From assembly GCA_038826135.1 (NCBI GenBank), contig JAWBON010000011.1, forward strand, positions 18,736 through 27,353: a stretch of 8,618 nucleotides of DNA. The letters run 5' to 3'. Source of the DNA: Candidatus Odinarchaeota archaeon. Lineage in GTDB: Archaea > Asgardarchaeota > Odinarchaeia > Odinarchaeales > Odinarchaeaceae. Under the pieces are notes generated by a model, which saw only the letters and a list, made by a program, of their open reading frames with translations, was not told the DNA's origin and searched no databases. A program made the position numbers and the translations under genes. Position 1 is the stretch's first letter. Each line of letters begins with the position of its first letter. Below are positions 3,235 through 8,061 of this stretch, in pieces.

Positions 3235-3399
3235 TATTCATCCCCACTATGCGTTAGTTAATTATTATTAGCTATTAACCTGTATTTTTAATAAATTTAT
3301 TAGTTTCGAAGCGTTATATATTTAACAACACGGGCTTTAACTAAAAATGTATGGATGCGAACAGATTACTATCACATTTAAATCATGAGGCGGTTTGTT

Positions 3400-3870
3400 T
3401 TGAAAATTATGGTTGTTCTAGGAGGGGGCGGTCACAGCTTCGAGATGATGAAGATTCTGGAAGGTTTGCATTTTAATAATATAATATACGTGTTAAACCA
3501 TGATGACCACTATACTGGTTTAAAGCTTAAGGGAACGCGTTTCTACAGATTGATAAGGCCTAGAAAACCATCAGAATACAGTGTTAAAGCTTTTTTCAGA
3601 TTTATATTTTCAATATTAAATTCACTGGCCCTTTTAATATGGACGAGGCCTAAACTGGTAATCACAAACGGCCCCTCTATAAGCGTGCCTTTAACTTTTA
3701 TCAGCTGGATACTAAGAATCCCGGTTATTTATATTGAGAGCGTGTGTAGAGTTTACAGGCTATCCCTTTCAGGCCGTATCATCTTGCCTTTAACCAGTCT
3801 TTTCATAGTTCAATGGCCGTATCTTAAAAAATATTCTAAGAAAATAATTTACGCTGGTAGAATCTTCTAG
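3400..3870 (+). CDS. alg14: Alg14-like acceptor-binding subunit of UDP-GlcNAc transferase
   Basis: VLGGGGHS.EM, ITNGPSISVP, YIESVCRV..LSLSGRI, FIVQWP and YAGRI match Alg14. TTG at 3400 is preferred because GAGGCGG lies at 3387-3393; ATG at 3385 or 3409 are alternatives. Confidence 0.9.
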   Translation: MKIMVVLGGGGHSFEMMKILEGLHFNNIIYVLNHDDHYTGLKLKGTRFYRLIRPRKPSEYSVKAFFRFIFSILNSLALLIWTRPKLVITNGPSISVPLTFISWILRIPVIYIESVCRVYRLSLSGRIILPLTSLFIVQWPYLKKYSKKIIYAGRIF

Positions 3871-3878
3871 GTGTTTTT

Positions 3879-4340
3879 ATGAAATTGTTTATAACAGTCG
3901 GTACTTCAAGTTTCGACCCTCTTTTCAGAAGGGTGGATGATATTCTAAAGGAGAGAACGGATTTTGAAGCTATAGGTCAGATAGGAACCGGGCTATATAA
4001 GCCGGTCCGGTTTACTAAAATTTTCAGGTTCACCAACAATATAGATAAGTATTACGCTTGGGCTGATCTAATAATATCGCATGGCGGTGCTGGTACAATA
4101 TATGATATACTACGCTTTAATAAGAAAGCGATAGTTATACCTAATAGGATGGTGGTTGAAGAGCACCAGGTTGAACTTGTTACCGTGTTACATAAGCTTG
4201 GCTATATAATGATGGGCGACCTTGATAAATTATCTGAACAGATAGCTGCCGCCTCAACATATGATTTTAAGCCGTATATTAGTAAACCCAACAAAATACA
4301 GTATATCCTGGATAAATATATTCGCGGAATTATAGGTTAA
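3879..4340 (+). CDS. alg13: Alg13-like donor-binding (GT28 C-terminal) subunit of UDP-GlcNAc transferase
   Basis: FITVGTSSFD, QIG, ADLIISHGGAGT and EHQVEL. It starts 8 nt after alg14, and SD AGGTG overlaps the alg14 stop. Confidence 0.9.
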   Translation: MKLFITVGTSSFDPLFRRVDDILKERTDFEAIGQIGTGLYKPVRFTKIFRFTNNIDKYYAWADLIISHGGAGTIYDILRFNKKAIVIPNRMVVEEHQVELVTVLHKLGYIMMGDLDKLSEQIAAASTYDFKPYISKPNKIQYILDKYIRGIIG

Positions 4341-6835: not shown

Positions 6836-6883
6836 ATAAGTCCTCCATATTAGGTTCTATTATGCGATAGTTAAATCTAAATA

Positions 6884-6891
6884 TTTTTAAA
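6884..6891 (+). promoter_or_regulatory. Putative TATA box for the tRNA-Lys (and possibly alg7) transcript
   Basis: TTTTTAAA spans about -32 to -25 relative to tRNA G1 at 6916, consistent with archaeal TATA spacing. The AT-rich context lowers specificity. Confidence 0.55.
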
Positions 6892-6946
6892 TCATGAGAT
6901 TAAATCCATATTGATGGGCCCGTAGCTCAGGCAGGTAGAGCGTCAG

Positions 6947-6970
6947 ACTATTCTAATAGAATAGGGTGAA
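6947..6970 (+). other. tRNA intron 1, 24 nt, position 30/31, strict BHB
   Basis: Outer helix AGAG(6937-40)/CTCT(6972-75), central helix CGTC/GGTG, bulges AGA (6945-47) and AAG (6969-71), intron hairpin CTATTCT-AAT-AGAATAG. Cutting after the second nucleotide of each bulge gives these boundaries. Confidence 0.85.
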
Positions 6971-6986
6971 GCTCTTAACTTGATGG

Positions 6987-7017
6987 ACTGGGGTATTGAT
7001 GAATACTCTAGGTCGAA
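6987..7017 (+). other. tRNA intron 2, 31 nt, position 46/47, relaxed BHB
   Basis: Central helix TGAT(6981-84)/GTCG(7012-15), bulge GGA (6985-87), 10-bp hairpin CTGGGGTATT-GATG-AATACTCTAG. The 3' site AA|T lacks a clear outer helix. Excision restores the variable loop TGGTC. Confidence 0.85.
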
Positions 7018-7074
7018 TCAAGGGTTCGATTCCCTTCGGGCCCGCCAATTAATTACGATAGGAGCCGGTCTTAT

Positions 7075-8061
7075 TTGGTTTTATCATCCTCCTGGTGGGT
7101 TTATCTATTAGTTTTTTCAATGTCTGCTTTCATATCTTTTATTGCAATACCCCTAGCAGCCAGCAAATTCAAGAAGGCTGGTTTGAAGGGTGTTAATCTT
7201 CACTCAAAATCTAGGGAGGAGAACGCTGAAAGTTTAGGTTTAGTTATTGGAATGATCACCGTTATTGTTATTATATTAATGTCTTTTTTATTGAAATCGT
7301 ATATTGACTTAATATATACGGCTATTATGTCCGCTGTGCTAGCTCTAATACTAGGGTTTGTCGATGATGTTTTAAATGTTAGATGGCGTTATAAGCTTCT
7401 AATACCGTTATTCGCTTCCATACCGTTAATTCTTAATTACGCAGGCTCCACCTCTGTTGAAGTTCCTTTTATAGGAGTTATCGAACTCGGATTAATATAT
7501 CCTTTACTGTTAATCCCGTTAATCACGATTTATATGGCTAACTCTATTAACATATACGCTGGTATAAACCTGTTAGAGGCTGGTCAGGTTATTGTTTTAA
7601 CTAGTGTTATAATTATTTTAGGTGCGGTAACCGGTAACGAGCTAGCCTTATATATGGCTGTGCCGTTTCTGGGTGGATGCTTAGCCTTAGCTTGGTTTAA
7701 TAAATATCCTGCGAGAGTGTTTGTTGGCAACTCCTTTACATATTTTGCCGGTATGTTTCTTATTTCCGTGGTTGTTTTAGCAAATATGGAGAAAATATTT
7801 ATATTATGCACGTTTCCTCAGCTGATTAATTTTCTTTACTCGCTTAAAGATTTTATTAAAAAAACACCTAGGCATAGAGTTCCAGTCTACAACGTGACCA
7901 CAGGGCTTTTAGAGGATTCAGGGAATCACACTCTTCTCAACCTGGTTCTCAAATTGAAAGGCCCGATGACTGAGAGAAGGCTTTCAGGAATACTGATTTT
8001 ACTGCAACTGTTTAACGCGGTGATTGTTTTAGGAGTCTGGTTGTTTTTAATATTGCTATGA
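7075..8061 (+). CDS. alg7: UDP-GlcNAc:polyprenyl-phosphate GlcNAc-1-P transferase, DPAGT1/Alg7 type (AglH family)
   Basis: Multi-pass membrane protein with LGFVDDVLNVRWRYKL, NSINIYAGIN.LEAGQ, YPARVFVG..F.YFAGM, PQLINFLYSL, PRHRVP and NHTLLNL..GP..ER.L. TTG start with GGAG at 7061-7064. Confidence 0.93.
   Translation: MVLSSSWWVYLLVFSMSAFISFIAIPLAASKFKKAGLKGVNLHSKSREENAESLGLVIGMITVIVIILMSFLLKSYIDLIYTAIMSAVLALILGFVDDVLNVRWRYKLLIPLFASIPLILNYAGSTSVEVPFIGVIELGLIYPLLLIPLITIYMANSINIYAGINLLEAGQVIVLTSVIIILGAVTGNELALYMAVPFLGGCLALAWFNKYPARVFVGNSFTYFAGMFLISVVVLANMEKIFILCTFPQLINFLYSLKDFIKKTPRHRVPVYNVTTGLLEDSGNHTLLNLVLKLKGPMTERRLSGILILLQLFNAVIVLGVWLFLILL

Follow-up and report, generated by a model that had tools for sequence, protein, structure and literature searches.

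A tRNA-Lys(CUU) gene with two predicted non-canonical BHB introns in the genome of a hot-spring Asgard archaeon (Odinarchaeia)

The locus described here raises the question whether a 132-nt sequence, interrupted twice at non-canonical places, can yield a working lysine tRNA, and whether the genome that carries it encodes the enzymes for doing so. The locus lies in an 8,618-nt stretch of DNA (contig JAWBON010000011.1 of assembly GCA_038826135.1, positions 18,736–27,353), which was analyzed as a whole and is referred to below as the window; coordinates are those of the window unless another contig or locus is named. An initial annotation of the window had described a tRNA-Lys(CUU) gene split by two introns, at tRNA positions 30/31 and 46/47, with none at 37/38. 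[quoted passage not shown] That the gene is transcribed, cut at these sites, and ligated is inferred from its anatomy, from comparison with related genomes, and from gene content, as any order of splicing would be.

Anatomy of the gene and its two BHB motifs

The gene occupies positions 6916–7047 of the plus strand and consists of three exons and two introns. Infernal matched the Rfam tRNA model to positions 6916–7044 (+) with 43.1 bits and an E-value of 1.1e-6, over the full model and with two large insertions. Exon 1 (6916–6946, +; tRNA positions 1–30, based on the Rfam alignment and the ARAGORN cloverleaf) contains the 5′ strand of the acceptor stem, the D-arm, and the first four nucleotides of the anticodon stem, ends in TCAG, and is invariant or covarying in six species. 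Exon 2 (6971–6986, +; tRNA positions 31–46) runs from GCTCTT to ATGG and carries the anticodon loop, the 3′ strand of the anticodon stem, and the first three nucleotides of the variable loop. The anticodon loop, CTCTTAA (6972–6978), is intact, with the anticodon CTT at 6974–6976 and no intron at 37/38. Exon 3 (7018–7047, +; tRNA positions 47–76, based on Rfam and ARAGORN) runs from TCAAGG to GCCA and comprises U47 and C48, the T-arm, the 3′ strand of the acceptor stem, the discriminator G, and a genome-encoded CCA, the last being kept in all five complete orthologues. An A/T-rich, TATA-like element at 6881–6892 (+), located 24–35 nt upstream of the mature 5′ end, was read from the sequence as a putative archaeal promoter. 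The same element is also found upstream of the three orthologues of the same genus, and a different A/T-rich box lies upstream of the gene in a second family.

The locus was scanned for every pair of cut sites meeting the BHB geometry, which was defined as a 4-bp central helix with a 3-nt bulge on each strand, both strands being read as helix followed by bulge, and a cut after the second bulge nucleotide. The top two candidates of this unbiased scan are exactly the two introns. Intron 1 (6947–6970, +; 24 nt; position 30/31) has the strict hBHBh′ form, with all four central base pairs formed (6941–6944 with 6965–6968), bulges at 6945–6947 and 6969–6971, an inner helix of 7 bp (6948–6954 with 6958–6964), and an exon–exon outer helix of 4 bp (6937–6940 with 6972–6975). 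Intron 2 (6987–7017, +; 31 nt; position 46/47) likewise has a 4/4 central helix (6981–6984 with 7012–7015), with bulges at 6985–6987 and 7016–7018 and an inner helix of 10 bp (6988–6997 with 7002–7011), and is of a relaxed form that lacks the outer helix (0 bp). As an internal control, the identical scanner geometry was applied to further tRNA genes of the genome and recovered their canonical introns at 37/38.

Because the genome is AT-rich, a lone BHB-like motif means little: of random 152-nt windows drawn from it, 14% contain one whose inner helix reaches 7 bp. The frequency in such windows falls to 0.3% when a 4-bp outer helix is added and to 0.9% when the inner helix has 10 bp, and two non-overlapping BHB-like motifs are found in only 1 of 1500.

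Once both introns had been removed in silico, ARAGORN recognized a tRNA-Lys(ctt) of 77 nt and drew it as a cloverleaf whose stems are all paired; when given the precursor, or the gene lacking only one of the introns, the same program returned either no tRNA or nonsense. The spliced sequence carries U8, A14, G18 and G19, A21, U33, A37, the G53–C61 pair, the T-loop UUCGAUU, the discriminator G, and CCA, and its variable loop, UGGUC, has the standard length of 5 nt and places C48 opposite G15. In these respects the initial annotation was accurate: its coordinates and its two junctions (TCAG/GCTCTT and ATGG/TCAAGG) agree exactly with the sequence, the placement of BHB introns at 30/31 and 46/47 and not at 37/38 is borne out by the scan, by in silico splicing, and by the covariation described below, and a clean tRNA is indeed obtained only after both removals. 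The expectation that a standard scanner would fail also proved right for ARAGORN, which misses the gene in the raw window at default settings and, with introns allowed, reports a tRNA-Pro(ggg) with one 40-nt intron, a call that we rejected as mis-typing. Infernal with the Rfam model does detect the gene.

Conservation, splice junctions, and the precursor

The gene is present in six of the seven Odinarchaeia species genomes, which represent two families, and both introns are at the same positions in all six. It was not found in the seventh genome, which is 82% complete. In both relatives whose neighborhood was examined, found via RIO1, the gene is syntenic and contains two insertions. An alignment of the precursor structure, comprising the acceptor and T stems and both BHBs, showed pairing in 99.6% of the cells, compared with 31–52% in controls in which the pairing partners had been slid. 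Double-sided changes affect eight pairs of this alignment, and six of these belong to the inner helix of intron 2; the observed covariation score was reached by none of 500 shuffles; the covariation events are nevertheless few, because the six genomes represent only two families.

Looking at the elements separately, the central helices of both introns form in 100% of the cells in the six species. The helices of intron 1 pair in 97–100%; one pair of its inner helix changed from UA to CG in a compensatory manner, two pairs of its central helix changed on one side only, and for one column (U to C) pairing would also be possible in the shifted 3-bp register of the minimum free energy (MFE) fold. 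In the inner helix of intron 2, six of ten pairs show double-sided compensatory changes, and all cells pair. The spliced cloverleaf, including the anticodon stem, pairs fully in the six species, and pair 29–41, which is formed only once intron 1 is out, changes from A–U to G–C. The exons are nearly invariant across the two families.

These data bear on the exact positions of the cuts. It is conceivable, though improbable, that splicing uses slightly different junctions, for example 29/30 for intron 1, 45/46 or 47/48 for intron 2, or a second intron of altered length that would leave a longer variable loop. A cut at 29/30 is compatible with the window's own sequence, where it gives a valid stem, neighboring tRNA genes of the genome use 45/46, and our pipeline also produced versions of tRNA-Lys(ctt) of 80–81 nt from alternative second introns with weaker central helices (3 of 4 bp). 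On the other hand, a 4/4 central helix together with 3-nt bulges is obtained only with the combination of 30/31 and 46/47, and it is this combination that gives the standard variable loop with C48 opposite G15. Position 30/31 is further favored over 29/30 because the latter would create an A30–C40 mismatch in the second family, and the nucleotides flanking the second junction, G45 and G46 on one side and U47 and C48 on the other, are kept in all six species.

The same comparison makes it very improbable that the locus is a decaying tRNA pseudogene with two insertions from which no working tRNA is made, a view that would fit the failure of ARAGORN to recognize the gene by default. In a pseudogene, one would not expect near-invariant exons in two families, compensatory substitutions in the intron helices, BHB geometry in both insertions, synteny where it was examined, or retention of CCA and of an upstream A/T box. 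Moreover, the locus appears to be the genome's only tRNA-Lys(CUU) gene: a CUU anticodon could be obtained from no other locus, and AAG codons are used often, accounting for 56 of the 2367 codons in the window's ORFs.

Returning to the reading as a functional gene with two introns, we considered how its precursor might fold. The outer helix of intron 1 consists entirely of exon nucleotides, A21–G24 of the D-arm pairing with C32–U35 of the anticodon loop, and the strict BHB takes both A21–G24 and C25–C28 of exon 1. Since this hBHBh′ structure uses D-arm nucleotides, the D-stem is excluded in that conformer. The central helix of intron 2 combines exon positions 41–44, i.e., the 3′ strand of the anticodon stem, with the 3′ end of the intron. 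The nucleotides of the two BHB motifs are disjoint, so that the motifs are compatible in one fold, and the modeling supports a putative precursor that is not a cloverleaf.

The calculated energy of the strict double-BHB conformer is −39.0 kcal/mol at 37 °C and −9.2 kcal/mol at 70 °C, compared with −58.6 and −20.4 kcal/mol, respectively, for the MFE fold, i.e., approximately 20 and 11 kcal/mol above the latter. Enzyme binding or tertiary contacts of the tRNA would thus need to select this conformer. In the MFE fold, the hairpins of both introns are formed and a BHB-like region in a shifted register lies near intron 1, but the strict BHBs are absent. This fold was not used for placing splice sites, because nearest-neighbor energies penalize 3-nt bulges. 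With intron 1 out, the anticodon stem differs little in energy from the second BHB (−40.5 versus −37.6 kcal/mol at 37 °C and −11.2 versus −12.5 kcal/mol at 70 °C), and removal of intron 2 leaves the first BHB intact. A forced order of splicing was considered and rejected on these grounds: no order is imposed by motifs that use disjoint nucleotides, and the alternative conformers are nearly isoenergetic after the removal of intron 1.

A search of sequencing runs found no RNA run containing the stretch. Two hot-spring runs that are labeled metatranscriptomic, and that are probably DNA, contain 9–15% of the sampled words. A 160-nt contig from these data spans positions 6946–7105 unspliced and no spliced joint was seen among the short contigs; this is neutral with respect to splicing. 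The single apparent joint, of 6941 to 7014, with 75 other letters in between, was rejected as coming from the tRNA gene of another organism. Two hot-spring contigs, of 43 kb and 8 kb, match only the region of the 5′ exon (6916–6950), with four differences; beyond it they diverge into an insert of another sequence, after which comes GCTCTTAAC. Another organism of the same springs may thus have a tRNA-Lys(CUU) gene interrupted at about the same place.

Host genome and splicing enzymes

The assembly comprises 1.26 Mb in 105 contigs, with a G+C content of 38% and an estimated completeness of 93%. That the host is an Asgard archaeon, as the initial annotation had supposed, is confirmed by the RIO1 kinase of the window, which is 77–78% identical to its counterparts in two Odinarchaeia MAGs and approximately 50% identical to those of Bathyarchaeia and others. 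In addition to RIO1, the archaeal proteins encoded in the window include NMD3, a Dim2-like KH protein, Alg14, and a CTP-dependent riboflavin kinase. The tRNA gene is flanked by an Alg14-family gene (3385–3870) with an adjacent ORF of 153 aa (3879–4340) and by a glycosyltransferase family 4 gene (7075–8061); Pfam supports the Alg14 and GT4 assignments.

Within its genome, the tRNA-Lys(CUU) gene is typical and not exceptional. In an approximate census, 26 of the 32 detectable tRNA loci had a length of at least 89 nt and were taken as interrupted. A splice-and-test census gave strong two-intron solutions for at least ten tRNA genes; because the procedure returns too many weak solutions with three introns for part of the genes, the numbers given here are approximate and cover only strong solutions whose central helix is 4/4. 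An intron at 46/47 with the same bulge sequences (GG/A ... AA/U) recurs in tRNA-Lys(UUU), tRNA-Thr(CGU), and tRNA-Thr(UGU), introns at 45/46 are found in tRNA-Val(UAC), tRNA-Pro(GGG), and others, and a site in the T-arm recurs in three tRNA-Gly genes and in tRNA-Asp. Position 30/31 is also used by tRNA-Leu(UAA) (C3:3552-3684, minus strand), which has a 23-nt intron with a 4/4 central helix, an inner helix of 6 bp, and an outer helix of 3 bp. As ARAGORN misses or mis-types the tRNA-Lys(CUU) gene, tRNA sets of Odinarchaeia will look incomplete unless BHB-aware tools are used.

Several other tRNA loci of this genome deserve mention. The tRNA-Leu(UAA) gene has a second insertion, in the region of the variable arm, and is typed by ARAGORN as Leu(aag). 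Three interrupted tRNA genes are clustered within 620 nt (C7:2249-2868), namely tRNA-Lys(UUU) with introns at 37/38 and 46/47, tRNA-Asp(GUC) with a T-arm intron, and a 144-nt gene that was not cleanly typed. A further ARAGORN call made when introns were allowed, a tRNA-Ile(gat) at C75:2600-3021 whose intron would measure 328 nt, could be spurious or a gene with a long intron.

The initial annotation had argued that such introns require an endonuclease of broad specificity. Intron 2, which lacks the outer helix of a strict hBHBh′, would need a tolerant enzyme, and the genome does encode an endonuclease of the broad-specificity type. Searches of the genome contigs with the profiles PF01974 and PF02778 revealed two EndA paralogues, each with the N- and C-terminal domains, one on contig C45 and the other across the ends of contigs C48 and C72. 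The latter, EndA alpha, runs off the contig ends (L119:1-420, minus strand, and L116:2-274, plus strand), which share approximately 42 identical residues. The split is an assembly break and not a broken gene, the orthologue in a closed relative (G006) being a single ORF of 188 aa. EndA alpha aligns without gaps to catalytic subunits known from (alpha-beta)2 enzymes of Crenarchaeota, namely those of A. pernix (3P1Z and 3AJV, chain B), S. tokodaii (2CV8), and P. aerophilum (2ZYZ, chain B), and it keeps the catalytic Tyr, His, and Lys when compared with chain B of 3P1Z; chain B of 3AJV, unlike that of 3P1Z, has an Ala at the position of the catalytic His. The Crenarchaea-specific loop (L1) is also present in alpha, where the sequence R-K-P-K is aligned, without gaps, opposite E-K44-P-R46 of A. 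pernix. Hirata et al. have shown that broad substrate specificity depends on this loop, and on K44 especially (PMC3241643).

In the second paralogue (C45; 185 aa), an Ala stands in the place of the catalytic His of the M. jannaschii enzyme (1A79); this protein would most simply be a structural, non-catalytic beta subunit. Gene content, taken together with Kaneta et al. 2018, thus points to a probable (alpha-beta)2 architecture. A gene for the RtcB ligase is present as well. Its profile match (C16:2586-5357) is split, with profile positions 1–50 and 49–426 lying approximately 1.4 kb apart in one frame of 995 aa, a pattern that would be expected from an intein-sized insertion.

In the favored reading, the gene would be transcribed as a precursor of approximately 132 nt, in which intron 1 would adopt the strict hBHBh′ form and intron 2 would form two 3-nt bulges around a 4-bp helix, stabilized by the 10-bp hairpin of the intron. 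The (alpha-beta)2 endonuclease would cut after the second nucleotide of each bulge, the L1 loop of the catalytic subunit broadening its substrate range, and RtcB would join the three exons into the 77-nt tRNA with its encoded CCA. That the insertions are instead kept as expansion segments or trimmed by other nucleases, independently of EndA and RtcB, is the least credible reading, for although a 2026 preprint (10.64898/2026.10.13.758758) warns that not every intervening sequence in Asgard archaea need be an intron, and although intron 2 has no outer helix, retention of intron 1 would split the anticodon stem and destroy the anticodon arm, both insertions fit the cutting geometry of EndA exactly and conserve it, and the genome contains the complete set of EndA/RtcB pathway genes.

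Comparison with known split and multi-intron tRNA genes

Of 301 sampled Asgard genomes, 38 contained a match to a search pattern that extends from the D-arm to the anticodon loop, and most of the matches are uninterrupted at 30/31. Among the sampled genomes, tRNA-Lys(CUU) has a cis-intron at 30/31 in Odinarchaeia and in four further Asgard species genomes, with three family codes. In each of these four, all four pairs of the central helix are formed and the 4-bp exon–exon outer helix is identical, and none of the four has an intron at 46/47. The same break occurs in trans-split form in Nanoarchaeota and Desulfurococcales.

This recurrence of 30/31 is the sole point of the present analysis that goes slightly beyond the literature found. 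The outer helix of A21–G24 with C32–U35 is possible only with a CUN anticodon, and the exons pre-encode this helix and half of the central BHB helix, so that an interruption at 30/31 could arise or persist repeatedly. We tentatively suggest, at somewhat less than even confidence, that position 30/31 of tRNA-Lys(CUU) may be a structurally predisposed hot-spot. Alternatively, one very old intron may have undergone many losses, in which case the cis-form of Odinarchaeia would be an intermediate between intron-containing and split genes. The cis-intron at the same junction offers material for comparison with the split genes.

[quoted passage not shown] According to Chan et al. [quoted passage not shown] The Odinarchaeia gene thus resembles these split genes in the tRNA species, in the 30/31 junction, and in the hBHBh′ at this junction. 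It differs from them in that the split genes are separate transcription units that are joined in trans by means of a long complementary leader, whereas the Odinarchaeia gene has a 24-nt cis-intron with a 7-bp hairpin, and also in its second intron, at 46/47. In a split gene, the halves lie at separate loci with their own promoters; here, the three exons follow one another on the same strand in a single stretch of 132 nt.

Multi-intron tRNA genes with introns at non-canonical positions were reportedly described for Crenarchaeota, and especially Thermoproteales, by Marck and Grosjean in 2003 and by Sugahara in 2007 and 2008. The present gene shares with them two BHB introns located off 37/38 and an (alpha-beta)2 EndA, as predicted here, with the Crenarchaea-specific loop. 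Near-identical copies of introns in different genes, as reported for Thermoproteales, were not apparent when the intron sequences of the census were inspected by eye. The host belongs to a different phylum. Yoshihisa's review names 30/31 and 45/46 as non-canonical positions of tRNA introns, and 46/47 is absent from its list (PMC4090602).

For Asgard archaea, Odinarchaeota LCB_4 among them, Kaneta et al. 2018 reported both disrupted tRNA genes and an (alpha-beta)2 EndA that carries the L1 (CSL) insert; some of the tRNAs escaped prediction (PMC5829648). Our checks of the EndA sequences agree with this survey. In other Asgard classes, tRNA genes with several introns are the rule according to Valentin-Alvarado 2024 (PMC11291895) and the 2026 preprint. 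In view of these publications, the initial annotation overstated the novelty of the gene, since both an (alpha-beta)2 EndA and multi-intron tRNA genes have already been published for Asgard archaea. The literature found contains no description of this particular gene, the supplementary tables of Kaneta et al. aside, and the word "Odin" is absent from the main text of the preprint.

The novelty of this gene from a hot-spring Asgard host is therefore modest. It adds an example, well supported and backed by covariation, to what has been published on Asgard archaea, namely that they combine many non-canonical tRNA introns with an endonuclease of the crenarchaeal, broad-specificity (alpha-beta)2 type. 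In Atabeyarchaeia and Freyarchaeia/Jordiarchaeia, as in the present genome, most tRNA genes have at least one non-canonical BHB intron and there are two EndA paralogues fitting an (alpha-beta)2 enzyme; by our rough census, the Odinarchaeia genome is less extreme than these classes. The tRNA-Lys(CUU) gene is one ordinary, well-conserved example of a pattern published for Asgard and crenarchaeal tRNA genes.
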